Source: Candidatus Latescibacterota bacterium (GTDB lineage Bacteria; Latescibacterota; UBA2968). Taken from it: a stretch of 64,000 nt of DNA. This document shows positions 1-46,632 of the stretch, in pieces. Made by a program: the position numbers and the translations under genes. The notes under the pieces were generated by a model, which saw nothing but the letters and a program-made list of their open reading frames with translations, was not told where the DNA came from and did not search any database. The stretch is from positions 256,001 through 320,000 of the forward strand of contig OZ242010.1 of NCBI GenBank assembly GCA_965204745.1, written 5' to 3'. How positions within the stretch are numbered: the stretch's first letter is position 1; every line of letters starts with the position of its first letter.

Positions 1-306
1 AAGAAAGCGATGCGTGCGGCGTTCGACATTTTCGGCGAGTACGCCTTTCGCAAGACCAGCAGGAGCGATAGAAAACGCCCGATCAGCAAGATACTGTTTG
101 AGGTCTGGAGTGCTCAGTTGGCGCGCTGTTCGCCCGATCAGATTCGCGTCCTCGTCAAACGGCGCGAGGATGTTCAACGTCGTTTCATGGAACTAATCGC
201 AAAAGACGATGAGTTTGAACGGGCGATCTCCTTATCGACCAATACGGTTCGGCGCGTGGAGAAACGTTTTCAAGCGGTTCAACAACTCATCGAGGAATTT
301 ATCTGA
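1..306 (+). CDS. 3' end of DUF262 (ParB-like/GmrSD_N) protein, putative Menshen NsnA; partial
   Basis: C-terminal FGEYAFRK...RPISKILFEVW resembles DUF262 proteins found upstream of DUF3696 ATPases; TGATG overlap with next gene. Confidence 0.6.
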   Translation, partial: KKAMRAAFDIFGEYAFRKTSRSDRKRPISKILFEVWSAQLARCSPDQIRVLVKRREDVQRRFMELIAKDDEFERAISLSTNTVRRVEKRFQAVQQLIEEFI

Positions 307-1424: not shown

Positions 1425-1425
1425 T

Positions 1426-2247
1426 ATGCGCGAAATGGTACTCAACCACGCGAGCCTTGGTTCGCCCGATCAACATACCGCCGTAGGGTGGCTGAAAGAG
1501 GTGACGGTCGGCATGAAGATGCTGGTTAGGGACAAAATCGCAAAACCTACTCTGAGAATGCGTCAGTCCCATGCTGAAATCCTTTGCCTGTCTAACTGGT
1601 CGCTGGGGGACGCGCTTCAGGAACTGCGGAAAGGTGGGGCGCGAGATGAGTACTTATTTTTTGCGCGCCTGACATCCAAGGTTCCACTTTTGTGCGACAT
1701 CGATCATGAGGTTGCAGATCGGTTTCGGGCGTGCGAGGCGACGACATTGCCGCCGGAAGATGGAGAGCCACTCGTTTTGTGCGCTATCACCGATGGCATA
1801 GCGGTTGGGTTTCCATCGGCTCCGGTTTGGGACTGCGATCAGCTAACGATCCATTTTGATGAACTACTGCCCGATGAAAGTATTGGGGAAGCGTCTGAAA
1901 TAATTGACAATCTCACGCGGTCCGCCCATGTTCAACCGATCTGTGAACGACATCGCGCTGGTCTCTGCGATCAATTCCCAAACGCCGCCGCATTGTGGAA
2001 TGGCACCGACCAATTCAGGGAAGCATTTGCAAAGCTCCCGCAACGCATCCAACGACTAGCAAAAAAACAACTCACCCTCTTTTTTCAAAACTACCGCTAT
2101 CCCTCTCTGCAAACCAAAAAAATGGAAGGTCACAATGATCTTTTTGAAGGCAGAATTACCAGAGGCTACCGCTTTATCTATCGCATGACTGGTGATACTT
2201 GTTATATCATCGACATTGGTACGCACGATGTTCTAAATCGGTATTAA
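1426..2247 (+). CDS. Putative NsnC-like protein with C-terminal RelE/ParE-like toxin domain
   Basis: Starts 1 nt after the ATPase; last ~80 aa (FAKLPQRIQ...YPSLQTKK...EGRITRGYRF...IGTHD) are RelE/HigB-like. Confidence 0.6.
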   Translation: MREMVLNHASLGSPDQHTAVGWLKEVTVGMKMLVRDKIAKPTLRMRQSHAEILCLSNWSLGDALQELRKGGARDEYLFFARLTSKVPLLCDIDHEVADRFRACEATTLPPEDGEPLVLCAITDGIAVGFPSAPVWDCDQLTIHFDELLPDESIGEASEIIDNLTRSAHVQPICERHRAGLCDQFPNAAALWNGTDQFREAFAKLPQRIQRLAKKQLTLFFQNYRYPSLQTKKMEGHNDLFEGRITRGYRFIYRMTGDTCYIIDIGTHDVLNRY

Positions 2248-2340
2248 AGGGCGAAGTGTAGGTAATCCTCCTCATCCTGGGGAGATGTTGCTATTGAATC
2301 CTGACGTTACGCAGTATGTCAATCCCGAACAGGAAACGAA

Positions 2341-2565
2341 ATGGCGACGATTCACATCCAAAGTATCGGTGAGAAAGTGTTGCTGCCACAAAGCGAACTC
2401 GAACGCCTCGTAGAATTGCACCGCGAAGATATCGTCTTGGACAGACGGGAAGACGGTGCGTCAACAGGACGTATCATGCACTTGGTGGCCCAAAGCGGCG
2501 CGTTTGACTTTTGGAAAGAGGAAGGAGAAGATATTTACTCCTTCGAGGACGGAGAACCGGTGTGA
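2341..2565 (+). CDS. Small acidic protein, putative antitoxin
   Basis: 74 aa, acidic tail AFDFWKEEGEDIY; GTGA overlap with a PemK-like N-terminus. Confidence 0.55.
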   Translation: MATIHIQSIGEKVLLPQSELERLVELHREDIVLDRREDGASTGRIMHLVAQSGAFDFWKEEGEDIYSFEDGEPV

Positions 2566-2618
2566 CGCGCCCAACGCTTTTTCGCGGTCAAGTGGTACTG
2601 ACGCGGTTTCCATTTACA
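2562..2618 (+). pseudogene. N-terminal remnant of PemK/MazF toxin, in frame with the SIR2 gene
   Basis: GTG-start MTRPTLFRGQVVLTRFPFT matches the PemK start motif RGxVVLxxFPFT; similarity stops after 19 codons. Confidence 0.6.
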
Positions 2619-2642
2619 AAACAAATTTTAAGGCCGCTTTAC

Positions 2643-3773
2643 ATGAATAATCTAGAAATTTTCACTCCTGAAGAACGAGAGGAAAACGAAAAACGAAAGC
2701 GTGAACTAATTGAACTTGTTGCTTCAAGAGAGTCTGTACTCATCGTTGGGGCTGGAAGTAGTGTTCGTGTGGGCTATGTGGATTGGTCTCGTCTTCTAAA
2801 AGAACTGGAGGATTTAGCCATCGCCTGGGGTGAAGATTTTGTGAAAGATGATAGAAAGCGCGAAAATGACCCATTAGAATACGCTGAAGATATCAAATCG
2901 CATATTGATAAAACAGGCAACTTAGCCAAATATCATGCGTTGCTCTATGACTTGTTTAAGCCCAAGACTCCTTCGTTTGATGATTTACACAAAACGCTGG
3001 TCGCGTTACCCTTCAGAGGAATTTTAACGACAAACTACGATACAGTGCTCGAAGCCGCGTTAGCTGAACAAGAACCGCTAACTGCTTTTGACAACTCATT
3101 GGTTATTGATAGCAGATCCGCCGCTCGAGTTGATGAATTTTTCAGGGCAATGATTGATAGCAACCTAACACGACGTATTGCACACTTACACGGAAAATTT
3201 GAGCCTCCAGATAGCATTATTCTAAGTATCAAAGACTACGAAAGGGCTTACGGTTTGAAGCTACCTATAAATCAAGTGCAGAAAGATAGAGATTTTGAAT
3301 GGACACTTCGCCGAAAATTTTTGTGGGCTGTATTCGCTACTCGCCGCGTCGTTTTTATAGGTTTCAGCATGAGAGACCCCTATCTTAACAAAATGTTGGA
3401 GACTGTCAGCACAGATTTGTGGAAATGGGGACAATCTACACACATTGCGATTATGAGTATCTCGCCCCAAAATGCCGATACCGACAAACAAGAGGCAGAA
3501 CTACTCAAAAACAAGTATGGTGTTGACACGGTATTCTACGAAGATTTAGATGGGTCGCATCTACGTTTAGACCATTTCGTCTCTGAAATCTCCAAAGTTT
3601 GTGAGAGTGAGCGTCAGTCAACCATTGCTCCAGCGATAAACCAGCCAAGTGCTAGAGATCGATCCGAATATGAAAAACCAAGACCCAATGAGAGTGCGTC
3701 TCAAGGTGTATTGAATTGGCTAGAACAAGTGAATGAACGTCTGGAAAGGGGCATTAACGACGATGAAAATTAA
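2643..3773 (+). CDS. SIR2_2 family (sirtuin-like NADase) protein
   Basis: VGAGSS, LTTNYD, HLHG and FIGFSMRDP motifs; ATG at 2643. Confidence 0.9.
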   Translation: MNNLEIFTPEEREENEKRKRELIELVASRESVLIVGAGSSVRVGYVDWSRLLKELEDLAIAWGEDFVKDDRKRENDPLEYAEDIKSHIDKTGNLAKYHALLYDLFKPKTPSFDDLHKTLVALPFRGILTTNYDTVLEAALAEQEPLTAFDNSLVIDSRSAARVDEFFRAMIDSNLTRRIAHLHGKFEPPDSIILSIKDYERAYGLKLPINQVQKDRDFEWTLRRKFLWAVFATRRVVFIGFSMRDPYLNKMLETVSTDLWKWGQSTHIAIMSISPQNADTDKQEAELLKNKYGVDTVFYEDLDGSHLRLDHFVSEISKVCESERQSTIAPAINQPSARDRSEYEKPRPNESASQGVLNWLEQVNERLERGINDDEN

Positions 3774-6700
3774 ACGAAAAAAATTGCTTGAGGACTTGCA
3801 GAGCTTTGCTTCGCAAGGAAATGGCGTAATTATCGGCAATCCTGGCGTTGGAAAAACATATCTACTGAAAGAACTTCGCCGAAGCCTAAAGTCCGAAGGA
3901 ACGCCTCATCTCCTTTTGCGGATTGACCAACTCGGTGATGGCACGGACAAAACGTTGCGGCAAGTGTTGTCGTACGAAGGTGATCTGATTGAAAAGTTGA
4001 AGTTCGTTCCCACTTCACACGAGAAATCAATTCTATTGTTTGACGCCTTTGACGCTGCTCGAAATGAACAGACGCGCAAACGCTTTCTGCACCTAATCCA
4101 ACGAGCAATCCATGAACTCAGCGAGTCGTGGAATGTCGTCGTTACGGTACGAACTTACGACGCAATGAAATCGCAAGAACTATTGGATATGTTTGGCAAT
4201 CCTTATGGCACCGATCTACCCCAATACCATAGCAAAGAGATTTTATGCCGACATTTCACAATTCCACCTTTGAATGAAGATGAAATTCAACAAGCCTTTG
4301 ACCAGATTCCGCATCTGGAGTCTATCTACAAATCTGGCTCTCAAGACTTTAAGTGCCTCCTTGCAAATCCATTCAATATCTGGCTATTGAAAAAAATCCT
4401 AAAGACCTCACAGAACATTCCCGATTTTAGTCACATTCATTCTGAAGTCCAATTACTCGGTTTGTTTTGGCAACGACGCATTGAGTCTTCAAGCGATGCA
4501 GATGCCCGTGGGTTTATCCTCACAAAGATCGCACGTCAGATGGTTGAGGAACGTTCACTGACCGTCAGGCAGGAAGACATTTATGAAAACCTACGCCTTG
4601 ACAAAGCAATGAGATGGACAGCATGGAATGGTCTCCTAAGCGATGAGATATTGTCCAAGGTTTCCTCAACAGGACAACGTATTGCTTTTTCTCACAACAT
4701 TCTCTTTGACTATGCAATCAGCGTCTTGCTCATTGAAGACGCCCCCAAAAAACTCGAAGTTTTTGTGCGTGAAGACCCATCGCGTCCGCTCTTTCTCCGC
4801 CCAAGCCTCACATATTTTTTTACTCGCCTCTGGTACTATGATGAGGCTCCTGAAAAATTTTGGAACGCTTTCTGGCATATTTTACCAAGCGATCAATCTG
4901 CACATTTGCGTCTATTTGCACGCTTGATTCCGACGAGTGTTGTCGCAAATGAGGCCCGCAAAATCACGCAGTTGAAACCAATTTTGAAGAAACTAAAGCA
5001 GAGAGAAGAACTCGCAAACGAAGCGACAATGCGGCTTTTGCAATCACTCCGTGCCCTACAGATCGAACGCGACGAACTTTGGATCGGGTTCTTCAACCAG
5101 GTTTCGGCACACTATCACGCCGACTTTGCCTGGGATTTGGCAACCCGCACTTCAGATATTCTTGAACGAGCGACAAACACCGATAACACGGCTATCATAG
5201 ACGCTTGTGGACGAGTTGGCCGTCGACTGCTCGGATGGGTATGGCAAGAAAGAGAGACAAGTGGTAATGATTGGTATAATCGGCTTGGTAGTTTTCGGGC
5301 GGTGCCGCTTGTCGCCAAAACGTATGGTACAAATGTCAAAGAATCGCGTCCTCTTCTCGAAAAGGTTCTCGAACTAACAAAAGAAGATAACTTCCCAATA
5401 AATTTTCTCACGCAGTTGGCCAGACATGTTGACAACATTTGGGGTTCTGATCCCGCGTTTGTCGCCTTGACCTATTGCACGGTATTCACACATTCCGAGA
5501 CGGGCGATGCACAGACAAACCTACCCATAAGTAGCCCCCTTTTAACTTTCACAAGCAATCGCCGCCAAGACTACGGCAGTTGTCAATATCTGTTGATAAA
5601 ACATTTCCCCGCCTTTCTTCAGGCAAATCCATTAGTCGCAACGCGAGCGGCGATCCGAAGTCTGATTTTTTTTGTTAAGAAAGAACATATTGACGGATAC
5701 CTCAAAGAAGGTGTGAAGGGTGAAGATTTGATAGAGACATTCGAGTTTCGTGGAAAAGACGCGTACTTTGTGCAAGACAATAGTTGTATATGGGATGAAC
5801 GAGAGTACCGCAATGAACCAATTGAAATTGCGGATAAGTTATTTCAATTCATCGCCGAAACGGCACGGTCAAACGGTTCGCTTCTCGATTCACTGCTCGA
5901 TGTTTTCCGTGATGAAGTGGGAGTCGCTTTTTTTTGGAAACGGCTCTTGAAGACAGCGGCTCAGTTTCCCGATGTTTTCGCACCGCACTTGTTTGAACTT
6001 TGTATAGCGAAACCGATACAAATAGGGGGCGATGCCCTTCATGAGCTCGGTCTATTTTTAGAAGCGGTTGCCTCTAAGTTTACGCCCGAACAACTGCGCC
6101 GGATTGAAGAGACCATTTTGGGACTTCCTTCGGAAGCAACGAGCGAAGATGACGCCAAAATCTTTGAACGACGGAGAAATCGGCTCATATCAAGGATATC
6201 GAGTGACTTGCTTCAAACGCGAGACGCCAAAGAGATCAAAAAAGAAATGGAGCGAACGGATCGAGTGCCCCCAAACGAGCCTTTATTCAGCTACAAATCT
6301 TGGTCAGAACCCTATACTGAAGAAAAGTGGCTTCGAGATCAAGGTGTTGACACCGCCACGCCGGAAAATCAAGAATTACAATGCTTTTTCGGGCCTCTCG
6401 ATAAATTCAGATTAGAGTGGTTAAATAAAATACCAACAGAGGAAGCCACCGAGTTGATTTTACCGCCATTACAGGAGGCATACGCCACCGTAAATGAAAA
6501 TAATAAAGCGACGAAAAAGATAATTGATTCTCTTTGGTATAAGTTGACTGCTTGCGTTGCAGTCCTCGGCCGAGTTACTAACCTTGAGAGCAAATGGTTC
6601 TCTTTTTGCCGTCAAGTGCTTCTACAAGCTGCAAAACATGAACTGCCCAAGCTAGATACAAGCGATGTTCAATCCGATACTCCTATGTATTCCCCATTTC

Positions 6701-7824
6701 CACGGCATGAAGCTGCCCAAGGACTACTAAGGCTCGCAACTCGCCAACCTGATGCGAAAATGTTAGACGCAATTGAGTCACTTGCCAGTGACCCTGTGCC
6801 ATCTGTTCGGACGGTGGCAGCGATGGAGTTGTTCCGAATTTACGACAAAAAGCCAGAAAGATTCTGGAACATCCTAGAGAATAGGGCAACGCATGAAACG
6901 ACTCACGTCGTACAAAAATACCTCTGCTATACATTGACTCAAGTGACCAAGAAAAAAAAAGAAAATGAAGATAAGACGACCCGTATCATGGATAAGATGC
7001 TCAAGCGTACACCGCCACCTAAAGAGAACGGAGAGCTAACAGATTCGTTTATTGATTTGTTGATGGAGTTGGCAATTGACCGCGAAAATTCATGGGCATT
7101 GAAAACTATAAAAGATACCCTTTTCGATGATCCAATCCGATTCGCTAACCCCTTGAGTCAGGCCGTGTCTCATGTTATGGAAGAGTATGTCGTCCCGAAG
7201 AACCTCGAAACACCTCAAAAAGAAAAAACTATTCAACGAGCTATTAAATGGTTGGAACAAGCGATTGATGCCACTTCTTCCGCAGTTCGGGAATTAGCCT
7301 GCAATAATACTGAGGAAAACAAAAAAAAATTGTGTGATGCCTACCAAGTGATTGATGAAGTGATCAAGCGTCTTTACTTTGAAGTTGCATACGAAAGCCA
7401 AACATCTGAGGAGTCCACAGAGAAAATTTCTGGTGAGTTGCGCTGTCGCTTCTATAACGAAGTAAAGTCGCTGATGAAACGGATCATCCATTTCGCATTA
7501 GACGGAGATAACGGCGTCATGTTTGCATCGACAGCACATTACTTCATGCAACTTCTAAGGAGTTTTCTAAGTTGTAATCCAAAAGAGGTCTTGCACTTAG
7601 CCGAAGGTGTCGCAAGGTCGAGTGAACCGTCCGGTTACAATCTCGATTCCCTTGCGGTTGCAGAGGTTGTCAAATTCGTCGAGATTGTCCTTGCCGACCA
7701 CCGGGACGCGGTGAGCGATGAACAAAGCTTGGAAGATATGCTGAATCTATTGGATATTTTCGCCAAAACAGGTTGGTCGGATGCACTTAGACTCGTTTGG
7801 CGTCTCGATGAGGTTTTTCGATAG
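3763..7824 (+). CDS. Large STAND/NACHT-like NTPase with helical-repeat C-terminus (Avs/AVAST-like, possibly Avs2)
   Basis: Walker A GNPGVGKT, Walker B LLFDAFD, VVTVR, LANPFN, FSHNILFDY; long helical C-terminus ending GWSDALRLVWRLDEVFR; overlaps SIR2 stop. Confidence 0.7.
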   Translation: MKIKRKKLLEDLQSFASQGNGVIIGNPGVGKTYLLKELRRSLKSEGTPHLLLRIDQLGDGTDKTLRQVLSYEGDLIEKLKFVPTSHEKSILLFDAFDAARNEQTRKRFLHLIQRAIHELSESWNVVVTVRTYDAMKSQELLDMFGNPYGTDLPQYHSKEILCRHFTIPPLNEDEIQQAFDQIPHLESIYKSGSQDFKCLLANPFNIWLLKKILKTSQNIPDFSHIHSEVQLLGLFWQRRIESSSDADARGFILTKIARQMVEERSLTVRQEDIYENLRLDKAMRWTAWNGLLSDEILSKVSSTGQRIAFSHNILFDYAISVLLIEDAPKKLEVFVREDPSRPLFLRPSLTYFFTRLWYYDEAPEKFWNAFWHILPSDQSAHLRLFARLIPTSVVANEARKITQLKPILKKLKQREELANEATMRLLQSLRALQIERDELWIGFFNQVSAHYHADFAWDLATRTSDILERATNTDNTAIIDACGRVGRRLLGWVWQERETSGNDWYNRLGSFRAVPLVAKTYGTNVKESRPLLEKVLELTKEDNFPINFLTQLARHVDNIWGSDPAFVALTYCTVFTHSETGDAQTNLPISSPLLTFTSNRRQDYGSCQYLLIKHFPAFLQANPLVATRAAIRSLIFFVKKEHIDGYLKEGVKGEDLIETFEFRGKDAYFVQDNSCIWDEREYRNEPIEIADKLFQFIAETARSNGSLLDSLLDVFRDEVGVAFFWKRLLKTAAQFPDVFAPHLFELCIAKPIQIGGDALHELGLFLEAVASKFTPEQLRRIEETILGLPSEATSEDDAKIFERRRNRLISRISSDLLQTRDAKEIKKEMERTDRVPPNEPLFSYKSWSEPYTEEKWLRDQGVDTATPENQELQCFFGPLDKFRLEWLNKIPTEEATELILPPLQEAYATVNENNKATKKIIDSLWYKLTACVAVLGRVTNLESKWFSFCRQVLLQAAKHELPKLDTSDVQSDTPMYSPFPRHEAAQGLLRLATRQPDAKMLDAIESLASDPVPSVRTVAAMELFRIYDKKPERFWNILENRATHETTHVVQKYLCYTLTQVTKKKKENEDKTTRIMDKMLKRTPPPKENGELTDSFIDLLMELAIDRENSWALKTIKDTLFDDPIRFANPLSQAVSHVMEEYVVPKNLETPQKEKTIQRAIKWLEQAIDATSSAVRELACNNTEENKKKLCDAYQVIDEVIKRLYFEVAYESQTSEESTEKISGELRCRFYNEVKSLMKRIIHFALDGDNGVMFASTAHYFMQLLRSFLSCNPKEVLHLAEGVARSSEPSGYNLDSLAVAEVVKFVEIVLADHRDAVSDEQSLEDMLNLLDIFAKTGWSDALRLVWRLDEVFR

Positions 7825-7928
7825 GTTTATCATAAGATTGACTTGCCCCCGGTTTGTTCTAAAATTGTGTCACCTCAATTATTTTTTGAATCCCATTCCT
7901 TACCACCCTCATTCACAGGAGAATGCAG

Positions 7929-9317
<1,389 letters not shown>

Positions 9318-14947: not shown

Positions 14948-15178
14948 GCATTTCAGCCTCGAGAATGGTAAAAAATAGCGTTTGTAATTTAGGCAAAAAT
15001 CAATGGCAGGGCAACAAAAACGGCATTGCACACGAGACAACCCGCACGCAACGCCGCCTTCACGAGGTATCAAAAAATCATTGACCCAATATGGTCATAT
15101 CCGCATGGTAAGGGACAAGAGGCGCAGTTGTCAGTTGTCAGCCGCTTTTATCTTTCTGATTTATCACTGGAGTTCCAA

Positions 15179-16009
15179 ATGCCAACACCTAATTCCCCCC
15201 AACGCCCTGAAATTTTGCCCAACGTGAAACACATCGTCGCGGTTGCCAGTGGCAAGGGCGGCGTGGGAAAGACGACGGTGAGCGTCAACCTCGCGGTCTC
15301 GCTCGCCAAACAAGGCGCGGCCGTGGGCCTGCTCGACGCGGATATCTACGGCCCCAACGTGCCCTTGATGATGGGCGCGATGGCGCAGCCCAAATCGCGG
15401 GGACAAAAAATTCTGCCCATTGAAAACCACCAGGTCAAATTCATGTCCCTCGGCCTGATTGCGGGCGAAAATGCCCCTATTATATGGCGCGGGCCTATCG
15501 TGGGCAGAATGATTCAGCAATTCATGATCGACGTGGTATGGGCCGCGCTCGACTATCTCATCGTGGATTTGCCCCCCGGCACGGGCGACGCGCCCCTCAC
15601 CCTCGTCCAAACCGTGCCCGTTGGCGGCGCGGTCATTGTCACCACGCCACAGAGTGTCGCGTTGGAAGATGTCTATCGCAGCATCGCGATGTTTCGCAAA
15701 GTGGAGGTGCCCGTTCTCGGCGTCGTGGAAAACATGAGTTATTTCCAATGCCCGTGTTGCGGGGACCTTGCGCCCCTGTTCGGCGAAGGCGGGGGGCAAC
15801 ACATCGCCGAGGCGTTTGGCCTGCCCCTGCTCGGTCAAATTCCCATTCAGCCCGATATTTGCGAACGCGGCGACGCGGGCCTGCCCATCGCCCTCGATGA
15901 CAACCCCAACGCGCACCCCATCAGCACCAGCTTTGCCGAGATCGCCACGCGCGTTGCCGAGGCATTGGGAGAACGCAAAAGCAATTTGCCGGAAATTACG
16001 ATTGTTTGA
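15179..16009 (+). CDS. mrp: Mrp/NBP35 (ApbC) Fe-S cluster carrier ATPase
   Basis: ASGKGGVGKT, DADIYGP, WRGP, DLPPGTGD, ENMS..CPCC. Confidence 0.93.
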   Translation: MPTPNSPQRPEILPNVKHIVAVASGKGGVGKTTVSVNLAVSLAKQGAAVGLLDADIYGPNVPLMMGAMAQPKSRGQKILPIENHQVKFMSLGLIAGENAPIIWRGPIVGRMIQQFMIDVVWAALDYLIVDLPPGTGDAPLTLVQTVPVGGAVIVTTPQSVALEDVYRSIAMFRKVEVPVLGVVENMSYFQCPCCGDLAPLFGEGGGQHIAEAFGLPLLGQIPIQPDICERGDAGLPIALDDNPNAHPISTSFAEIATRVAEALGERKSNLPEITIV

Positions 16010-16403
16010 AGAGCGCGGTCTGTGACCTGTGACCCCGCCCAACTCCCTTCGGTAAGACGTAAGACGGGAGAGGGGAGGCAACCCCGCCACAGCCTACCCC
16101 TTCGGCAAGAGGGGAGACGTAAGACGTAAGATGTAGGGGCGATGCCCCGTGCTCGCCCGAAGATACAAGAGGGGAGAAGACAACTGCGCTATTCCGATCA
16201 AGGGATCAAGTAGGGTCAGCCTCCATCTCCAAGCCCCGTAGGGATGGCTCTTGTGCCTGTCCTCGTACCCAGCGATGAGGGCGACCACCCAGCGGTCGAT
16301 AGCCAATCTTTGGGGCAGGGCTTGCAGAACGGGCAAAAATGCGTTACATTCAAAGGCAAGCGTCCAATGCCTGTCGTAACTTTAAACCAAAAGGAGAAGC
16401 ACG

Positions 16404-17078
16404 ATGATTGCGAATCTCGCTAGGGAAAAAGACAACTTTCGCATGGCGGTGTTCTGCGAGCCATCCGTGGGTGTGGTGAACGACAAGGGCGAGACGGGCC
16501 TGCACATTACAGCGCGTCTGAACCTGCCCGCACTGACCGAAGACCTGTTGGCGCAGGGGGCCAATGTCAACGTGCAGGCCCAATGGGGCATCACACCGTT
16601 GCACGTTGCGGCGGGGTACAACGCGCTTGAAACGACACAGGTCTTGCTGAACTACGGGGCAGATGTCCGTGCCAACGCGGAATTTCAGGGAACGCCGCTA
16701 CATGTTGCGGGAAAAAAAAATGCTTGTGAGATAGTTGCGTTGTTGTTGAAACGCGGTGTCCCTGTCCATGCGACAGCCAACGATGGCAAGACGCCGCTAC
16801 ACTATGCGGCGTGGCACAACGCGCTTAAGACAGCAAAATTGTTGTTAAATCAAGGTGCCGATGTCAACGTGAAAGACATAGCTGGCATGACGCCCCTGCA
16901 CTATGCGGCGGCGGTCAATGCTCATGAGATGGAAGCGTTATTGCTTCAAAAGGGGGCTGATGTCAACGCGGATGACAAGTTTGGAAATACACCCCTGCAT
17001 TTTGAGAGTCTGTTGGGGTCTGCCACGATCAAAATGACCACAGATGAAATCATGGCATTGACTCGGGGGGAAAAATGA
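16404..17078 (+). CDS. Ankyrin-repeat protein with a VapB/AbrB-antitoxin-like C-terminal tail
   Basis: Five to six G.TPLH repeats; last repeat cut after TPLH and continued by ESLLGSATIKMTTDEIMALTRGEK. Confidence 0.8.
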   Translation: MIANLAREKDNFRMAVFCEPSVGVVNDKGETGLHITARLNLPALTEDLLAQGANVNVQAQWGITPLHVAAGYNALETTQVLLNYGADVRANAEFQGTPLHVAGKKNACEIVALLLKRGVPVHATANDGKTPLHYAAWHNALKTAKLLLNQGADVNVKDIAGMTPLHYAAAVNAHEMEALLLQKGADVNADDKFGNTPLHFESLLGSATIKMTTDEIMALTRGEK

Positions 17079-17488
17079 ATGGTCTGCTGGTCGATTCCAA
17101 TGTCATTTTAGATGTCGCTAAAAACGATCCCGATTGGGCGACTTGGTCTTTACGAATGCTTGAACGATACCACGCGACTCACGAGTTGATCATCAATCCG
17201 ATCATTTATGCAGAAGTGTCAATCGGGTATGAAAATATTGAAGAAGTAGAGCGCGTGCTCAAAGAAGGTGGCTTTCACATGCGCCAAATTCCAAAGGAAG
17301 CCCTTTTTTTCGCTGGCAAGATTTTTTTGGCGTATCGCAAGCGCGGTGGAATAAAATGTTCGCCATTACCCGATTTCTTTATCGGCGCGCACGCCGCCGT
17401 TGAAAAATTATCTCTGTTGACGCGAGATGCAAGCTACAAAACAAATTTCCCGACAGTGAATCTCATTTCACCTAAAGAGTCATGCTGA
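17075..17488 (+). CDS. vapC: PIN-domain toxin (VapC family)
   Basis: LVDSNVILD, IYAEVS, PLPDFFIGAHA, LLTRD; ATGA overlap with upstream gene. Confidence 0.9.
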   Translation: MNGLLVDSNVILDVAKNDPDWATWSLRMLERYHATHELIINPIIYAEVSIGYENIEEVERVLKEGGFHMRQIPKEALFFAGKIFLAYRKRGGIKCSPLPDFFIGAHAAVEKLSLLTRDASYKTNFPTVNLISPKESC

Positions 17489-17549
17489 AGTCATTTGCTT
17501 TGGAGGCATAGAAATGGCAGACTTAATAACTGTGTCGGTTGATATGTTT

Positions 17550-17628
17550 AGCATCATCAAAAGGGCGGCCGAACAATCTCCGTACGGGGTTTAGAAGCCC
17601 CGACCTTTCAAGGCGGGGAGTGTATCAC
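17550..17628 (+). mobile_element. IS200/IS605-family right-end remnant
   Basis: GAAGCCCCGACCTTTCAAGGCGGGGAGTGTATCAC: subterminal hairpin ending in TCAC; no tnpA/tnpB present. Confidence 0.55.
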
Positions 17629-17773
17629 AGCCGAAATACGGCGCGTTATTGATTATCCGCATATAGTTGATTCATTAAAAAATGTCGAAATTTGAAAAGG
17701 CTTCGCGGCAGTTGATAGACACATTCAAAACAGGCAAGGTCACCGGTTATCAGTGTCAAAGGGCGAGATACAA

Positions 17774-18100
17774 ATGAGCGAAATCACATTGCATATTCCG
17801 GACGCGCTGACGGGGTTGCCCAAACGGGAACAGGCCATTCTCATGGGCCGTGCGCTGAGAAGTGCTGTTGAGGAGCGCGTGATTCAGGTCGAGGAGGAAA
17901 TCAGGGAGGGGCAGGCTTATTTGGAACAGTACAAAAAGAAGTACGGCCTTTCGTTTGTAGCTTACGAAAAAAAAATCAATGACTTGGAATTTGTAGGAGT
18001 CGATTATCAAGAGGATTACAACGACTGGTATTTCTGGACTGAGTGCGTGCAACGCGCCCAAGGTGTTTTAATAAATTTACGCCAATTTTTGTCGCCGTAA
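17774..18100 (+). CDS. Hypothetical protein, antitoxin-like
   Basis: 108 aa ORF, YKKKYGLSF...EDYNDW pattern seen in small TA-associated proteins. Confidence 0.55.
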   Translation: MSEITLHIPDALTGLPKREQAILMGRALRSAVEERVIQVEEEIREGQAYLEQYKKKYGLSFVAYEKKINDLEFVGVDYQEDYNDWYFWTECVQRAQGVLINLRQFLSP

Positions 18101-18186
18101 TGAATCTCAATATCCCAAATCAATATCGAGGAGAGGATGGGGCGGAAGATGGGGCATCGTGAACCAGCAACTCGAGGAGACACGCC

Positions 18187-19359
18187 ATGAGCGCGACTTA
18201 TGACATGCTCGTCGCACGGGCAACGGCTATTACTACCGGGCTTTCTCCGGAACGCGCACAGGAGAAACTCCACGCCAATGGCACGTTGCTCATTGACGTG
18301 CGCGAGCGCGAACACTACATCGAAGGGTATATCCCCGGCGCGGAAAACGTGCCGCGTGGGTTTCTCGAACTTCGCATCGAAGGCATGGACAACGACCGTG
18401 ACCGCACGATTGTCGTCTATGGCGACAAGGGCCAAGGCGCGTTGGCCGCACAGGCATTGCAAGGCATGGGCTATGCCAATGTCGCGTACATCCAAGGCGA
18501 CATCGAGGCGTGGCAAAACGCCGGTTTGCACCTCCACCGCGACCGCGCGCTCAACAAGGCCGAAGTGCAACGGTTCTCCCGCCATCTGCTCATTCCCGAA
18601 GTGGGGGAACGCGGGCAGGGCAAATTGCTCGACGCGCGCGTGTTGCTCATCGGCGCGGGCGGATTGGGCAGCCCGACGGGCCTGTATCTGGCCGCGACGG
18701 GCATTGGGACGCTCGGCATTGTCGATGCCGACGTGGTCGACGTTACCAACTTGCAACGCCAGATCTTGCACGGCACGTCTGACCTGGGCCGCCTCAAAGC
18801 CATCTCGGCGTACGAGACCCTCAAAGAGATCAACCCCGGTTGCCAAGTGGTGCCGCACACGGACTACCTCACGTCCGACAACGTCATGGACATTCTTCCG
18901 GAATACGACATTATCGTCAATGGATGCGACAACTTCCCAACGCGGTATCTGGTCAACGACGCGTGCGTGTTCCTGAAAAAGCCCATCGTGGATGGCAGCA
19001 TTTTCCGATTCGAGGGCCAAGTCACGGTCTATACGTGCGACAGCGAGGGGCCGTGCTACCGATGCCTGTACCCCGCGCCGCCGCCGGCAGATTTGGCGCC
19101 GTCGTGAGACGAAGCAGGCGTGTTGGGCGTTTTGCCCGGCACGGTTGGCCTCGTGCAGGCCACTGAAGTCGTCAAACTCATTCTCGGTCAGGGCAACCCG
19201 CTCATCGGTCGCTTGCTGATGTACGATGCCCTGCAAATGAACTTCAACACGTTCAAAATCCGCCGCGACCCGACCTGCCCAGTCTGCGGAGACAATCCCA
19301 CGATCACGGAATTGATAGATTATCAAGCCTTCTGCTCGATGGATCACGGTGAGAAATGA
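18187..19359 (+). CDS. moeB: Rhodanese-MoeB/ThiF adenylyltransferase, probable selenoprotein (Sec at TGA 19105-19107, residue 307)
   Basis: GAGGLG, NLQRQ, CYRCL..APS-TGA-DEAGVLG..CPVC; ORFs 18187 and 19120 are in the same frame; TGA replaces the conserved Cys. Confidence 0.85.
19120..19142 (+). promoter_or_regulatory. Candidate bacterial SECIS element
   Basis: GTGTTGGGC-GTTTT-GCCCGGCAC 9-bp stem; apical loop starts with G, 21 nt after UGA. Confidence 0.65.
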
Positions 19360-20231: not shown

Positions 20232-23200
20232 ATGACCTCCCGATCCGCTCACTTGTTGGCTCTGGTCGCGTTGGGCATGCTGATGGCATCAGGGCCGGCT
20301 TTTGCCCAAACCGACTACGATACGGACAACGACAACCTGATTGACATCACCTCCTTGGCGCAACTCAATGCCATTCGCTATGACCTCAACGGCGATGGTA
20401 CGGTACCGTAGCCACTACGGATACCATGAACTACAACGCCGCCTTTCCCAACGCCATGTCGGGCATGGGTTGCGCCGCTACCTGCACCGGCTACGAGTTG
20501 ATGAACAACCTGGACTTTGACGAGAACAACGATGACCAGATCACCTCAGCAGACGCCACCTACTGGAACAGCGGTGCCGGTTGGACGCCCATCGGTGTTG
20601 CGTCCACCGGTGCTGCAACCGTCTTCTCTGCCACCTTTGACGGCAATGACAACACCATTTCCAACTTGTTTATCAATTCCAACACCAGCACTGCCACCGG
20701 CGGCGGTTTCGTCGGTCTGTTCGGCGATGTCAGCGGCACGATTAGAGATGTGGGCTTGTTGGACGTGAATATCACCAACACTCGCACTTTCGTTACCACC
20801 GGTTTAAACTTTGGTCGAACCGGTGCCTTGGCGGCTCGCCTCAGTAGCGGCGGCGCGGTGCGCGGGAGCTACGTCGCCGGCGGCTCCGTAACCCACACCA
20901 CCGGCAGTGGCAATGTCGGCTATCTCGGCTGTCTATTGGGCTACGCCACTGCGCCCGTCAGCGATAGCCACGCCACCTGCAATGTGACCGGAGCGAGCGA
21001 CCTCACGATTTACTTAGGCGGCCTGATCGGTGGATCCGACGGTAACGTCGACTCCACCTACGCCACTGGGACGGTCACCAAAACCGGCTCCGGTGCCAGC
21101 CTCGGCGGTGGCCTGATCGGTTGGACCACGGGCCGGGTCAGCGTCAGCTACGCGACCGGGAATGTCACCGCCGCCGGCCGCGGCAGAGCGGGCGGCCTGA
21201 TAGGTTTTATGCAGGGTCCCAGCTACGCCAACTACGCGACCGGGAACGTTTCCGGCACCGGCACCGGTGACGGTTCCACCAACATCCAAAGCCTCAGAAT
21301 GGGCGGCCTGATCGGATCGATGGATCTCGGTAGTGGCGAATACCTGCGCTCCAGCTACGCAACCGGGAACGTTTCCGGCACCGGCTCCGGCGTCAAAGCG
21401 GGCGGCCTGATAGGTCAAGTGCAGGTCACTGACGCCAACTCGATAAGCGCCGTCTATGCTATCGGCGCTGTTTCCAACATCAGCACCGGCACCACAGCCA
21501 CCGGCGGCTTGGCGGGACAACAGACGGGTTCAGCCAACCCGATGACCAACAGCTACTGGGACAGACAAACCACCGGGCAGACCACCACCGCTGGCACCAG
21601 TAGTAGCACCACTGGCGCTCAAACCACCAGCGCACTCCAAACCCCCACAGGCTATACCGGCATCTACACCACCTGGAACCAGAATCTGGACGGGCAAACG
21701 GGCAACGACGATCCGTGGTACTTTGGCGCGACGAATCAGTACCCCGTGTTGAAGTATGCCGGCCTGGACACCACCGCGCAATTTACGTTGCAACCGCCGG
21801 GCAGGCCGGTTGTGGCAGTGACGTCCAATGGGGACACTTTGTACGTGGGCTGGAGTGCGGCGAGTCAAGCGACGGGATACACCGTGCAGTGGAAATCCGG
21901 CATGCAAAGCTACGACGCCTCGCGTCAGGCCACCACCACGGCTACGCGCTACAAGATTCCCTTGACGACGGGGACGACCTACACAGTACGTGTCCTTGCC
22001 ACCAAGACCGGTGCGCGCAACACAGCTTCGGTCGAGGTCATGCGCGCTCCAGGCCTCACCAATTACGATACCGATGGCGATGGCCTCATCGCTATCACCA
22101 CGCTAGCTCAGCTCAACGCCATTCGCCACGACCTAAACGGCAATGGCGACGCTACCCACGCCGATTATGACGCTGCCTTTCCCGGCTGCGACACCAGCAG
22201 CAGCGCCCGCATGGGCTGCCTCTCGGGATGCACCGGCTACGAACTGCTCAGCGACCTGGACTTTGACGAGAACAACGACGGCGCAATCACCTTAGCAGAC
22301 GCCACCTACTGGAATAACGGCGCAGGCTGGATGCCCATCGGAACCGACGCCGACACAAACGCTCCATACACAAGCCAATACCACGCCGTTTTCAAAGGCA
22401 ACGGCTACACCATCAACAACCTATACATCAGCCGCCCCAGCACTAACGACGTCGGGCTGTTCGGCGCAATTTCCTCCCCCGGCCGCATCGAGACCTTGGG
22501 CGTAATCAACGCCGACGTTACGGCGCAGTATTGGGTCGGCATTCTGGCAGGCACCATTCGCGGCGACGGCGATATTGTCGCCAGTTACACCACCGGCGAG
22601 GTTGCCGGCACCCAAAATGTTGGTGGATTAGTCGGCTACATGTTAGAAACAGGACCAGGAATCCACTCCAGCTACTCTACAGCATCCGTCAGCGGCAATC
22701 TGAACGTCGGCGGTCTATTGGGCCGCCAGGACAGCGGCGGCTCTATAACAAACTCATACTCCACCGGCAGGATTAGCGGCACCGGAAGCTCTCCCGTCCA
22801 AATCGGCGGACTATTAGGCCTCGGTAACCTGGGAAGCGTCGTGTCCAACAGCTACTGGGACACCTCCACCAGCGGGACTACCTCTAGCGAAGGCGGCACG
22901 GGCAAGACGACCCGCGAGCTCCTAAGCCCCACCACCTACGGTGCCACCAGTAGCGATCCCTACTACAACTGGAACGCCAACCTCGACGGACAAGCCGGCA
23001 ACGACGATCCGTGGACCTTTGGCGCGATGGATCAGTATCCGGTCTTGAAGTATGCCGGCATGGACACCACCGTGCAATTTCAGCTCCAACCTGCGGTCGT
23101 GACATTGGCACTGACGCCTTCGTCGATCTCGGAAAGCGGTGGGATGAGCACCGTGACCGCGACGCTGACACGGTCATGGAGTACGGCGACGACGATCACG

Positions 23201-24466
23201 GTGCGTCCTGTGGCCGGTGCTTACACGGTGGGGATGGATTCGACGATCACCATCGCGGCCGGGAGCACGGCGAACGCGTCGGACACGGTGGTCATCACAG
23301 CGGTGGACAATACCCAAGACGCGCCTAATCGCGACGTGACCGTGACCGTTGTATCAGACAACGACCAGGGCAGTGTGGTCCTCCCGACCGAGATAACGAT
23401 CATCGATGATGACGCGCCGCCGAGGCTCTCGATCAGTTCGCCGAGTGCGGTTGAGGGCACTGCCCTGACGTTCACCGTTAGATTGAATGCAGTGAGCGAC
23501 AAGGCGGTGACGGTGGCGTATGCAGACGCGGGCACGGGCACCGCGACTTCGGGTACCGATTACACCGCACTTACCGCAGGGACCCTGACCTTTGCGGCAG
23601 GCGTGACCAGCCAGACCATCGCTGTTTCTGTGACCGGCGACACGGATAATGAGCAGAACGAGACCGTGATCGTGACGCTGAGCAGTGCGACCAATGCGAC
23701 CATAAGCACGGCGCAAGGCACAGGGACGATTATCGATGACGATGGCATGCCTGCGCTGAGTATCGGTTCGCCCAGCGTGATTGAAGGCGCGACCGGCGCG
23801 ACCCTGACCTTTCAGGTGTACCTACGCCCAGCGCACACGGCACAAGTGACGGTGGCGTATGCAGACGCGGGCACGGGCACCGCGACTTCGGGAACCGATT
23901 ACACCGCGCTTACCGCAGGGACCCTGACCTTCGCGGCGAGCGATACCATCCAGACCATCCCTGTTTCTGTGACCGACGACTCGGATGATGAGCAGAACGA
24001 GACCGTGATCGTGACGCTGAGCAGTGCGACCAATGCGACCATAAGCACGGCGCAAGGCACAGGGACGATTATCGATGACGAAACCCCGAGTGCCAACTTG
24101 GATGTGGATGGCGATGGCCGGGTGAGATTGTTCTCGGATATAATCTTGGTCATTCGATACGTCCTCTTCTTCCGGAACGAGGCCCTCCTCAGAGGGAACG
24201 TCATCGAGCCAACTGCCACGCGCACGACCGCTCAAGACATTGAACCCTACCTCGACACGTTGGTCAATCAGAACATTCTCGATGTGGATGGCGATGGCGA
24301 TGTGAGGCTGTTCTCGGATATAATCCTGATCATTCGATACGTCCTCTTCTTCCGGAACGAGGCCCTCCTCAGAGGGAACGTCATCGAGCAAAATGCTACG
24401 CGCACGACCGCTCAAGCCATTGAACCCTACATTCGAAGCCTCTATCCCGCCTCCCACTTCCAATGA
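20232..24466 (+). pseudogene. Large secreted surface protein (GLUG repeats, FN3, Calx-beta, dockerin/EF-hand-like tail), frameshifted at ~20400
   Basis: Signal-peptide ORF 20232-20411 and the 1346-aa ORF 20426-24466 join in frame if one GGTAC of GGTACGGTAC (20397-20406) is removed; GGLIG repeats; duplicated Calx-beta 23507-23741/23846-24080. Confidence 0.8.
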
Positions 24467-29380: not shown

Positions 29381-30388
29381 ATGTCGAAATCTCAACCCGC
29401 TTTCGCCGGCATTGATGTCAGTGCCCGCACGTTGTCTGTTGCCCTGTCCAGACCCGGACAAGCTGTCATGCAAGCGACCTTTGCCAATGATCCCCAAGCC
29501 CATAAGCGGTTGCTGAAGTGGCTCACCAAGGGCGGGCACATGGTCTCTGTGTGCCTCGAAGCGACCGGGCTTTACAGCTTGGGGGTGGCCTTGGCCTTGC
29601 ATCGGCATCGCCACACAAAGGTCATGGTCGTCAATCCCAAAGCGATGAGCAAGTACGGTCAAGCCCGCATGCAACGAGCCAAGACGGATGCGAAGGATGC
29701 GTTGTTGATCATGGATTATGCCGAGCGCATGCCGTTTGTGCCTTGGCAAGCGCCGAGTGAGCAACGGCTTCAACTGCAAGCCCTCACCAGACGCATTGAC
29801 CAACTCAAGCAGGTGATCATCAGTGAACAGAGCCGCAACCACGCGCAAAGCTACCACATCCTGAGCACACGGCGCATCGCACGCGATATTCAGGTGAATA
29901 TTCGACACCTCAAACGCCGGATTGCATACTTGGAAGACCAAGCCCTCGATCTCGTTTTGCACGATGAGACCCTCAAGCGCGCCTACCAACGCCTCTGCTC
30001 GACGCCTGGCATCGCACAAACGAGCGCCTTGCGGCTCTTGGCCGAGTTGACCCTTTTGCCTGAGGAGATGCAACCGCCCCAGTGGGTCGCACATGCAGGC
30101 CTGGATCCCAAACCCAAACAATCCGGAACCGCCAACCCACAAAGACGCATCTCGAAAACCGGGAATAAGTACCTCCGCCATGCCCTCTATATGCCTGCCT
30201 GGGTGGCCATCAGACACGAAGTCCATGTCAAAGCCTTCTATGACCAACTCATTGCCCGCGGCAAGAAACCTTTGCAGGCTATCGTTGCGGTGATGCGAAA
30301 GTTGCTCCATTCAATCTGGGGCATGTTGCGGCATGACCAAGATTTTGAGGGCGAGAAATTCTATCGAATCGCCCCGCAATCCCCTTGA
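29381..30388 (+). CDS. IS110 recombinase/transposase
   Basis: DEDD (GIDVS, LEAT, KTDAKD) and QSG serine; KISKTGNKYLR-like C-terminal domain. Confidence 0.96.
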   Translation: MSKSQPAFAGIDVSARTLSVALSRPGQAVMQATFANDPQAHKRLLKWLTKGGHMVSVCLEATGLYSLGVALALHRHRHTKVMVVNPKAMSKYGQARMQRAKTDAKDALLIMDYAERMPFVPWQAPSEQRLQLQALTRRIDQLKQVIISEQSRNHAQSYHILSTRRIARDIQVNIRHLKRRIAYLEDQALDLVLHDETLKRAYQRLCSTPGIAQTSALRLLAELTLLPEEMQPPQWVAHAGLDPKPKQSGTANPQRRISKTGNKYLRHALYMPAWVAIRHEVHVKAFYDQLIARGKKPLQAIVAVMRKLLHSIWGMLRHDQDFEGEKFYRIAPQSP

Positions 30389-32695: not shown

Positions 32696-33703
32696 TCAAG
32701 GGGTTTTCGGGGTGATTCGATAGAATTTCTCGCCCTCAAAATCTTGGTCATGCCGCAACATGCCCCAGATCGAATGGAGCAACTTTCGCATCACCGCAAC
32801 GATAGCCTGCAAAGGTTTCTTGCCCCTGGCGATGAGTTTGTCATAAAAGGCTTTGACATGGACTTCGTGCCTGCAGGCCACCCAAGCAGGCATGTAGAGG
32901 GCATGGCGGAGATATTTATTTCCGGTTTTCGAGATGCGTCTTTCCGGGTTGGCCATCCCGGATTGTTTGGGTTTGGGATCCAGGCCTGCATGAGCGACCC
33001 ATTGGGGCGGTTCCATCCCGTCTGGCAAGGAGGCCAGCTCGGCCAAGAGCCGCAAGGCACTCGTTTGGGCGATACCGGGCACCGAGCAGAGGTGCTGGTA
33101 GGCACGCTTTTGAGTCTCGTCCTGCAAAACGAGTTTGAGGGCTTGGTCTTCCAAGTAGGCAATGCGGCGTTTGAGGTGTCGAATATTCACCTGAATATCG
33201 CGTGTGATGAGGCGGGCACGCTTGACGGGGTAGTCCTGCGCGTGGTGCCGGTTCTGTTCTCGGCTGACCTCCTGTTTGAGTTGGTCAATGCGTCTGGTCA
33301 GCGTTTGCAGTTGCAGGACGTGCTCGCTCGGCACTTGCCAAGGCACAAAGGGCATGCGCTCGGCATCATCGAGGATCAACAACGCATCCTTCGCATCTGT
33401 CTTTGCCCGTTGCATGCAGGCTTGAGCGTACTTGCTCATCGCTTTGGGATTGACGACCATGACCTGCGTGCAGCGATGCTGATGCAAGGCCAAGGCCACC
33501 CCCAAGCTATAACGCCCGGTCGCTTCGAGACAGACCGAGACCATGCGCCCGCCCTTGGTGAGCCACTTCAACAGGTGCTTGTGCGCCCGAGGCGCGTTGT
33601 CAAAGGTGGCTTGCATGACCCCTTGTCCGGGTCTGGACAGGGCAACGGACAACGTGTGGGCACTGACATCAATGCCGGCAAAAGCGGGTTGAGTGTTCGA
33701 CAT
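32696..33703 (-). CDS. IS110 recombinase/transposase, diverged paralogue of copy 1
   Basis: 335 aa, same DEDD and QSG motifs. Confidence 0.96.
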   Translation of the reverse strand: MSNTQPAFAGIDVSAHTLSVALSRPGQGVMQATFDNAPRAHKHLLKWLTKGGRMVSVCLEATGRYSLGVALALHQHRCTQVMVVNPKAMSKYAQACMQRAKTDAKDALLILDDAERMPFVPWQVPSEHVLQLQTLTRRIDQLKQEVSREQNRHHAQDYPVKRARLITRDIQVNIRHLKRRIAYLEDQALKLVLQDETQKRAYQHLCSVPGIAQTSALRLLAELASLPDGMEPPQWVAHAGLDPKPKQSGMANPERRISKTGNKYLRHALYMPAWVACRHEVHVKAFYDKLIARGKKPLQAIVAVMRKLLHSIWGMLRHDQDFEGEKFYRITPKTP

Positions 33704-42148: not shown

Positions 42149-42264
42149 TCCCTCGCAAAAAAATGACGCTCCGCATTCTCATCTGGACATCGGGCCTTGG
42201 CCGCCCACCACTTGGACGGAGAACATCTGATATGGATTTTGCAAGTTGTGGGAAAGGAGAATCC

Positions 42265-45602: not shown

Positions 45603-45604
45603 CG

Positions 45605-45832
45605 ATGCCCTTTATCAAAGAATACGGAAAACTGACCGGTCTCAACCGAGATGAATGGCGAGACCTGAAGGACTTCGCACTTGAAAACCAAATGGATCAA
45701 CAGGGCAATCACCGCCCGGTTTTGGTGTCGAAAAACGACCGGTTGTACGCGCAAAACTACGTGGGCATTATCGAAACGCGCAAACGCGAAACGCGATTCA
45801 GACGCTTGGCTCATCGCCAAAAAAAAAATTGA
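45605..45832 (+). pseudogene. Truncated mcrC fused to a copy of the ankyrin-gene 3' end
   Basis: First ~60 codons match 48819 onward, then sequence switches at ACGCGCAA to match 43321-43394. Confidence 0.85.
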
Positions 45833-46600: not shown

Positions 46601-46632
46601 CCATGCCACATACCACAAACGGAGATAGTCAA

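Follow-up and report, generated by a model that had tools for sequence, protein, structure and literature searches.

Does an in-frame TGA within a gene for a MoeB-like enzyme end translation, or is it read as selenocysteine (Sec)? This question is raised by a locus on a 64,000-nucleotide (nt) stretch of Candidatus Latescibacterota DNA (contig OZ242010.1 of assembly GCA_965204745.1, positions 256,001 to 320,000), denoted below as the window. At 18187-19359 of its forward strand, gene callers place two open reading frames (ORFs), which are a single gene, and the codon that divides them, UGA307, very probably encodes Sec, as judged from sequence comparison. The gene, termed Sec-moeB here, and its parts are the following:

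18187-19359, + strand: whole Sec-moeB gene, 390 codons, for a rhodanese-like plus ThiF/MoeB-type adenylyltransferase, with one in-frame UGA as codon 307
18174-18179, + strand: Shine-Dalgarno-like GAGGAG, 7 nt 5' of ATG 18187, read from the sequence
18244-18522, + strand: N-terminal rhodanese-like domain, residues 20-112, with the loop VVY-GDKGQG at 18418-18438
18574-19284, + strand: ThiF/MoeB E1-like adenylation domain, residues 130-366, containing the nucleotide-binding motif GAGGLG and two CxxC motifs of zinc type
19054-19065 and 19276-19287, + strand: the CxxC motifs (C290/C293 and C364/C367), invariant in a 46-sequence alignment
19105-19107, + strand: UGA codon 307, proposed selenocysteine, at the position of Cys187 in E. 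coli MoeB and of the crossover-loop Cys in C. thermophilum Uba4
19119-19143, + strand: hairpin resembling a selenocysteine insertion sequence (SECIS), arms 19119-19128 and 19134-19143, apical loop GUUUU 19129-19133
19333-19335, + strand: Cys383 of the C-terminal tail, present in all 46 family members of the alignment

The frame starts with ATG 18187, meets its first in-frame TGA at 19105-19107 and continues without interruption until TGA 19357-19359, the true stop; related proteins begin at the same residue as the window protein. Calling under translation table 11 yields a 306-residue ORF (18187-19107) and a 79-residue GTG-started ORF (19120-19359). A preliminary description of this DNA had stated that standard callers split the gene and that reading continues in frame through the second CxxC to 19359, giving 390 amino acids; both statements hold, with all coordinates and motifs correct. 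The read-through product matches the Pfam Rhodanese family over residues 20-112 (3.7e-19, 69.5 bits) and Pfam ThiF (PF00899) over residues 130-366 (4.1e-81, 272 bits, profile positions 1-238 of 238). It reaches 512.6 bits with the NCBIfam model NF006444 (cut-off 449), equivalent to PRK08762 and named 'molybdopterin-synthase adenylyltransferase MoeB', and remains below cut-off with the equivalog models of MoeZ, classical MoeB and ThiF. Its domain order is not that of the MoeZ/Uba4/MOCS3 type, as the rhodanese domain is N-terminal and the MoeZ model NF005902 gives 400 bits with a cut-off of 647.

The TGA stands in the context LAPS-(TGA)-DEAGVLGVLPG. In an alignment of the homologues, taken as the 120 best matches from a search of 5.8 billion proteins, the column of residue 307 holds Cys in 87 sequences; 32 end exactly one residue earlier, and one is a shorter fragment. 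The 32 early-ending proteins comprise 305-336 amino acids and are 71-99% identical to the window protein over the covered part. These counts bear out the earlier claim that the TGA lies exactly at the conserved Cys of the loop, and the coincidence of TGA and Cys is clearly beyond chance. Structural alignments place residue 307 at MoeB Cys187 in 1jw9_B (the number being counted along the alignment) and at the corresponding Cys of Uba4 (6yub); the same position is Lys in chains 6yuc_D and 6z6s. In C. thermophilum Uba4, Cys202 is reported as the crossover-loop cysteine that forms a thioester with Urm1, and a C202K mutant trapped the complex (PMC7527816). Yeast Uba4 C225 is described as the thioester site needed for thiocarboxylation (PMC6007339), and Cys184 in the crossover loop of ThiF as forming an acyl-disulfide with ThiS following exchange with ThiI (PMC12596934). 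ThiF Cys184 and MoeB Cys187 are equated with the E1 Cys in PMC13139853, where they are said to form no thioester.

Is this TGA a property of a single genome? One scan of a species-level genome collection gave 80 related moeB loci (numbered with the prefix L), in which codon 307 is TGC in 62 cases, TGA in 12 and TGT in 6. Nine of the TGA loci belong to a Latescibacterota clade (L001-L007, L016 and L017; 76-91% protein identity to the window); eight of them are titled Candidatus Latescibacterota and L007 only 'bacterium'. The remaining three stem from metagenome-assembled genomes (MAGs) of Methylomirabilota (L035, L047 and L049) and show ~54% identity. All 13 TGA genes (the 12 loci and the window) carry TGA, never TAA or TAG. 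The check for TGA in orthologues that the preliminary description had proposed thus finds the codon in two separate clades, and its word 'rare' applies in a relative sense, with TGA in 12 of 80 species-level loci of this subfamily.

A quick maximum-likelihood tree of 78 rows with Shimodaira-Hasegawa-like approximate likelihood ratio test (SH-aLRT) support, from which three Thermomicrobium loci are left out (they were missed by the motif pattern and carry TGC), resolves two groups of TGA genes. The first comprises 10 Latescibacterota rows including the window (support 97) and is nested in a 19-row clade (support 99) together with nine Cys-type genes from Latescibacterota and Gemmatimonadota; the second consists of the three Methylomirabilota rows (support 100). 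The well-supported branches require at least two changes of state between TGA and Cys. Among the best 150 matches of a search against 50%-identity representatives, three proteins (P0152, P0176 and P0229) terminate at the same residue as the TGA; P0152 is Methylomirabilota-like, and the other two represent two further lineages known from protein only. The recurrent origin of Sec at one site is a modest new point.

Is the DNA beyond the TGA still coding? Gene callers give a truncated 306-residue product, e.g. in clusters P0002, P0054 and P0083 as named by their sources, as would be expected of a pseudogene or of a sequencing or assembly error. Against an artefact, the same TGA recurs in 32 protein clusters and in 12 MAG records obtained independently by different projects. 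Against decay, the frame is intact in 13 of 13 TGA genes for 82-86 codons beyond the TGA, up to the usual C-terminus of the family (CPVCG...FC) with the second CxxC included, and it is selectively constrained: for the 45 pairs formed by the 10 Latescibacterota TGA genes, the median Nei-Gojobori omega is 0.072 over 200 codons upstream and 0.066 over 80 codons downstream, with a synonymous divergence (dS) of ~0.7-2.5 in 24 of the 45 pairs (undefined in two comparisons). The codons downstream of the TGA are under the same purifying selection as the upstream ones; the low omega and the intact frame exclude a dead or untranslated tail, and a pseudogene or an error of sequencing or assembly is thus extremely improbable.

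Downstream purifying selection alone cannot separate read-through from re-initiation, and a GTG-started ORF does begin at 19120. The TGA might accordingly be a true stop, with the 306-residue part and a separately initiated fragment of ~79-83 residues (from GTG 19120 or a nearby TTG) forming a two-chain enzyme devoid of the loop Cys. This arrangement is very unlikely. No Shine-Dalgarno-like sequence precedes 19120, and the codon of L006 that matches this GTG is GTT. The split would cut the crossover loop and remove its functional residue, and it would have had to occur on the catalytic Cys codon, without an indel, in two clades and also in the MoeZ-type genes from the Sargasso Sea considered below; the exclusive use of TGA in 13 of 13 genes likewise speaks against it. 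A break that falls precisely on a Cys codon, always as TGA and in separate clades, is the signature of a Sec/Cys pair and not of gene fission.

For a genome-wide reassignment of TGA to a sense codon, no support was found. The 34 Pfam-supported ORFs of the window stop with TGA (15), TAA (11) or TAG (8), the TGA stops lying where the domains end, and moeB itself terminates with TGA where its relatives have TAA or TGA. As TGA is a normal stop elsewhere in the window and at the end of moeB, a reassigned code is excluded for practical purposes, its probability being negligible. A scan of the window for a second selenoprotein gave 55 in-frame-TGA candidates; among the seven of these that were translated across their TGA, none has a domain extending over it, which likewise speaks against reassignment.

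If UGA307 is decoded as Sec, which signal would direct the insertion? Downstream of the codon, the RNA can form the hairpin CGUGUUGGGC-GUUUU-GCCCGGCACG, with 10 base pairs (bp) in the window. Its stem begins 11 nt after the UGA; the loop G, which opens a Val codon, follows the UGA by 21 nt. The same 11-nt spacing separates the UGA from the stem-loop in the minimal E. coli SECIS, and the stem of 9-10 bp and the small apical loop with a G likewise agree with a bacterial SECIS-like stem-loop. The outermost pair holds in only three of the 13 TGA genes; the '9-bp hairpin' with a G-first loop 21 nt downstream, as the structure had previously been described, is therefore a fair count across the TGA genes. 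A 71-nt segment has a z-score of -2.9 versus dinucleotide shuffles. The hairpin lies inside the codons for A-G-V-L-G-V-L-P-G-T, its stem being formed from the G-V-L-G and L-P-G-T codons. When this peptide was re-coded with the codon usage of the window (3000 resamples), a mean of 7.7 of 10 pairs arose, all 10 in 3.5% of the resamples and an energy as low as observed in 2.8%; the hairpin exceeds chance only modestly.

Several observations weigh against Sec at codon 307. By codon reading, approximately six of the 10 hairpin pairs are dictated by the amino acids, and the numbers of pairs formed at the same positions are close to each other in TGC genes (7.9 of 10, n = 59), TGT genes (8.7, n = 6) and TGA genes (8.8, n = 13). 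Because the encoded peptide largely dictates the pairing, the hairpin alone is weak evidence. Covariation within the 13 TGA genes is not significant, with 380 of 500 shuffles reaching the observed paired share and only one cell changed on both sides, because the TGA sequences are too similar and coding-constrained. Rfam returned no match, neither in the whole window at gathering thresholds nor in 19000-19300 at E<=10. As for the machinery, selA, selB, selD and tRNA-Sec were not found in the window (Pfam on 45 ORFs, ARAGORN and Rfam); ARAGORN detected no tRNA at all in the window or the 12 TGA-bearing loci, hence no tRNA-Sec, and no sel gene was found by Pfam among 81 flank ORFs of seven of the 12 TGA loci (L001, L003, L006, L007, L035, L047 and L049). 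A literature search returned no statement on Sec use in Latescibacterota. One homologue, P0032 (329 residues), shares ~90% identity with the window protein as far as residue 293; beyond this point the two diverge, and P0032 has Cys in place of Sec. Represented by one sequence only, from a 3.6-kb contig, P0032 could have arisen by chimeric assembly or by a natural recombination that exchanged the Sec-bearing part. The proposed function lacks local partners as well: the window holds no ATG-started ORF of 55-130 residues ending in GG, as would be expected of a MoaD/ThiS-like carrier, and no molybdenum cofactor gene among its 45 ORFs, so that the pathway label 'MoeB' derives from the NCBIfam name only; a partner gene may lie outside the window.

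The lack of sel genes in the DNA examined (window and related flanks) would also suit a read-through without selenium, in which a near-cognate tRNA (Trp, Cys or Arg) suppresses the UGA, perhaps aided by the hairpin, in a genome devoid of Sec machinery. Against this stands the retention of TGA over a dS of at least 0.7 though it is one base from TGC or TGT, which implies that the UGA encodes something that Cys cannot supply. Trp or Arg in an invariant Cys column is implausible, and the same site is a recognised Sec/Cys pair. Selenium-free suppression is regarded as just as improbable as the split gene. As to Methylomirabilota, a review passage mentions a MAG of this phylum with 63 predicted selenoprotein genes, which indicates that the lineage uses Sec.

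Decoding of UGA307 as Sec thus remains the preferred reading, and the hairpin can be examined in a way that takes its coding constraint into account. Raw pair counts fail to separate TGA from Cys genes; contrasts at synonymous sites and in the minimum free energy (MFE) do so. The informative comparison uses the four hairpin pairs that depend only on synonymous sites and the MFE structure of a 60-nt segment; the last value of each line is the mean hairpin energy:

Latescibacterota TGA genes (n = 10): 3.1 of 4 synonymous-site pairs; MFE structure with at least 7 of 10 pairs in 9 of 10; -16.2 kcal/mol
Methylomirabilota TGA genes (n = 3): 2.0 of 4 synonymous-site pairs; MFE structure with at least 7 of 10 pairs in 3 of 3; -13.3 kcal/mol
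Sister-clade Cys genes (n = 9): 1.56 of 4 synonymous-site pairs; MFE structure with at least 7 of 10 pairs in 1 of 9; -10.3 kcal/mol
Other Cys genes (n = 56): 2.05 of 4 synonymous-site pairs; MFE structure with at least 7 of 10 pairs in 9 of 56; -10.0 kcal/mol

At least 7 of the 10 pairs are retained in the MFE structure of 12 of 13 TGA genes versus 10 of 65 Cys genes, and all 13 TGA genes have a G-C pair at 21-33, where none of the nine sister Cys genes is paired. According to the synonymous-site and MFE contrasts, the peptide provides a proto-hairpin that is sharpened in the TGA genes.

What kind of enzyme would carry this Sec? The residues G156, G158, G159, L160, G161, C290, C293, C364 and C367 are invariant in the alignment of 46 sequences, and both CxxC motifs of the window protein align with those of E. 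coli MoeB. In the loop of the rhodanese-like domain, Gly replaces the catalytic Cys, and the loop is one residue shorter than the active form YCAGGNRS; the features of an active rhodanese (PF00581 with the loop YC-x-G-x-RS) are thus absent from the window domain. All 10 Latescibacterota TGA genes and all nine sister Cys-type genes lack the rhodanese Cys; all three Methylomirabilota TGA genes and all 56 other Cys-type genes possess it, within YC-x-G-x-RS. The fused rhodanese domain of the Latescibacterota clade has lost its catalytic Cys. Residue 307 and Cys383 are the only conserved non-zinc Cys/Sec residues, with Cys247 shared by 90% or more of the 46 sequences. By analogy with the linker Cys305 of Uba4, Cys383 may be a resolving thiol for Sec307. 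An AlphaFold2 model computed from the 46-sequence alignment has a mean predicted local distance difference test (pLDDT) score of 87.7 and a predicted template modelling (TM) score, pTM, of 0.78, and it superposes on ThiF 1zud and MoeB 1jw9 with target-normalised TM scores of 0.94-0.97. Its sole internal low-confidence block, residues 301-310 (mean pLDDT 62), fits a mobile crossover loop.

Taken together, these observations allow a wider reading, which is held with rather less than even confidence: the codons for GVLGVLPG would constitute a ready-made SECIS-like hairpin, by which this E1-like family was pre-adapted to a change from Cys to Sec, and in the Latescibacterota clade the Sec would reside in an enzyme whose rhodanese domain is dead. 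If so, one TGC-to-TGA change and a few synonymous changes would suffice for the switch, and the repeated occurrence of Sec would be accounted for, namely in Latescibacterota, in Methylomirabilota and in the MoeZ type of the Sargasso Sea, with two additional 50%-identity clusters as possible further cases. The Sec would then be the only non-zinc catalytic chalcogen in the Latescibacterota clade, an E1 working with selenium via a selenoester or an acyl-selenosulfide. A proto-SECIS imposed by coding would be a concrete example of how a SECIS originates.

Is Sec-MoeB itself new? Eleven sequences were reported from the Sargasso Sea (Zhang, Fomenko & Gladyshev 2005; PMC1088965) and 19 from the Global Ocean Sampling dataset in 2008 (PMC2398784). 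The family is listed, with one example accession, in two reviews (PMC9312934; PMC13188914), and a study of Olavius symbionts includes Sec-MoeB in its list of known families that were 'not detected'. The Sec-MoeB records printed with the Sargasso study (supplementary file 1) show u in ...LVPSu(A/S)VAGVLGVLPG at places 1-17 of 22 matches (PMC1088965). The preliminary description was right in that Sec-MoeB had been predicted from metagenomes, published since 2005 with U at the same site. Its remark that the family is little studied also fits the sources, which mention MoeB in family tables or summary text and nowhere else; a literature search that left subscription journals outside its coverage found no experimental study of Sec-MoeB at the bench.

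The Sargasso proteins resemble the window protein in having U at the same crossover-loop position, the same AGVLGVLPG motif, a ThiF/MoeB domain and a majority of Cys forms, and in being predicted only; the shared site and domain place the window gene in the known predicted Sec-MoeB family. In contrast to the window protein, whose rhodanese domain is N-terminal and Cys-less, those Sargasso records that are long enough have the MoeZ/Uba4 order, in which a rhodanese domain with intact Cys (...LYCYKGQRS...) forms the C-terminal part. The window form thus differs from the Sargasso type by its Latescibacterota-like genome and its NF006444 architecture. Closest to it are the Cys-type NF006444 proteins of Latescibacterota and Gemmatimonadota (L008-L015 and L031), which share 71-73% identity, the domain order and the Cys-less rhodanese loop, but have TGC for TGA and leave the synonymous sites of the hairpin mostly unpaired. 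E. coli MoeB (1JW9) and ThiF (1ZUD) have the same fold and both CxxC motifs, MoeB Cys187 aligning with residue 307, but lack a rhodanese domain and use Cys instead of Sec. Uba4/MOCS3 (C. thermophilum 6YUB/6YUC) likewise fuses an E1-like adenylation domain to a rhodanese domain, and its crossover-loop Cys, which aligns with window residue 307, forms a thioester with the carrier before persulfide attack; unlike the window protein, it is eukaryotic, uses Cys and requires its C-terminal rhodanese domain for catalysis.

Family and site have consequently been known since 2005, and no new category is proposed; new are the recurrent origin, the coding-imposed proto-SECIS and the clade with a dead rhodanese domain. 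Annotation consistently misses the full extent of the gene: 32 of 120 close database entries break off at the Sec codon and bear the names of ordinary ThiF/MoeB proteins. Sec at this codon would put selenium in place of the catalytic cysteine in an E1-like enzyme, a family ancestral to ubiquitin activation, where a selenoester or selenosulfide intermediate would be new enzymology. The close Cys and Sec sister forms within one phylum, some of them in complete MAG chromosomes, constitute a natural pair for testing the benefit of Sec.

In which pathway might the enzyme act? The genes next to moeB in the window are the following:

15026-16009, + strand: Mrp/ApbC (NUBPL-type) Fe-S P-loop NTPase gene, directly 5' of moeB in related genomes
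16404-18100, + strand: insert between the Mrp gene and moeB, with an ankyrin-repeat ORF (16404-17078), a PIN-domain ORF (17075-17488) and a 115-residue ORF (17753-18100)

The insert of ~2.1 kb (16090-18187) is specific to the window compared with all related MAG loci; its PIN-domain (VapC-like) ORF overlaps the ankyrin ORF by 4 nt, and the 115-residue ORF belongs to no family. In L003 and L006, the gene order is FtsY, a class-V aminotransferase of the cysteine-desulfurase type, Mrp/NUBPL and moeB, and the Mrp-moeB pair is also kept in the five Cys-type sisters compared by blastn (L008, L009, L010, L012 and L014). In Methylomirabilota, thiI lies immediately upstream of the TGA-containing moeB in L035 (8656-9906) and L049 (79-1254), and an archease gene follows Sec-moeB in L049 and, with rtcB next to it, in L047 (segment 7437-9369). 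These neighbours hint at a link to tRNA thiolation and repair and not to molybdopterin synthesis.

The product would be a MoeB/ThiF-type activator of a sulfur-carrier protein, and the pathway may be that of molybdopterin, thiamin or tRNA thiolation. A mechanism comprising Sec insertion, chemistry, sulfur donor and pathway can be proposed on the model of Uba4 and ThiF. UGA307 would be decoded as Sec under the direction of the stem-loop that starts 11 nt downstream. The enzyme would then adenylate the C-terminal glycine of a ubiquitin-fold sulfur-carrier protein, and Sec307 would either attack the acyl-adenylate to form a selenoester or resolve an acyl-persulfide by selenosulfide exchange (acyl-selenosulfide). 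Either route would speed the formation and release of the carrier thiocarboxylate, and Cys383 may serve as the resolving thiol. Since the rhodanese Cys is lost in the Latescibacterota clade, the sulfur would have to come from another protein, a candidate donor being the product of the cysteine-desulfurase-like gene two genes upstream in the relatives. As a separate observation on carriers, the similarity of P0188 (384 residues) to MoeB covers residues 1-303 and ends before the Cys loop is reached, the remainder being unrelated to MoeB; by eye, this remainder resembles a MoaD/ThiS-type protein and may reflect a frameshift or a fusion to a carrier gene in another lineage.

Beyond the moeB locus, the window carries two blocks of low guanine-plus-cytosine (GC) content and a further defence-related gene. 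A defence-gene island extends over 306-7824 on the + strand (GC 44-45% at 2001-8000), and a second low-GC block (45-50%) over 43755-50072, also on the + strand:

306-1424, + strand: NsnB-like gene (PADLOC, 4e-105)
1426-2247, + strand: NsnC-like gene of the defence island
2511-3773, + strand: SIR2_2 protein, ThsA/LmuA-like, of the defence island
3733-7824, + strand: NACHT/STAND NTPase, 1363 residues, matching the candidate system PDC-M54A (8e-195)
43755-45602 and 46603-48816, + strand: AAA_5 McrB-like ATPases of the second low-GC block
48813-50072, + strand: McrC-family gene (PF10117, 1e-83)
60858-63902, + strand: SNF2 helicase, 1014 residues, matching the DISARM DrmD model nearly over its full length (1e-115)

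The segment 43755-50072 looks like an McrBC-type restriction module with a duplicated B subunit. The SNF2 helicase gene is directly preceded, in the same frame, by a gene for a WD40-repeat protein of 903 residues (58125-60836), one of several eukaryote-like repeat proteins of the window, which also include the ankyrin proteins at 16404-17078 and 41974-43374 and a Calx-beta protein of 1346 residues with long internal repeats (20426-24466). The related locus L003 has a WD40 gene with DNA similarity at 2452-4494.

Genes of IS110-family transposases at 29381-30388 (+ strand) and 32696-33703 (- strand) flank genes for a GDP-mannose-dehydratase-like epimerase and a Na/Ca exchanger; the segment 29306-30679, considered as a TGA read-through candidate, was rejected as an IS110 transposase that ends at its TGA. 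A 767-residue ORF on the - strand (34465-36768) combines LNT_N and CN_hydrolase domains (residues 23-464, apolipoprotein N-acyltransferase) with a complete TatC domain (540-750); an unusual Lnt-TatC fusion or a pair of genes without an intervening stop would account for it. On the same strand, 50117-56713 comprises three consecutive Peripla_BP_6/ANF_receptor genes of 828, 508 and 871 residues, the last of which encodes two such domains.

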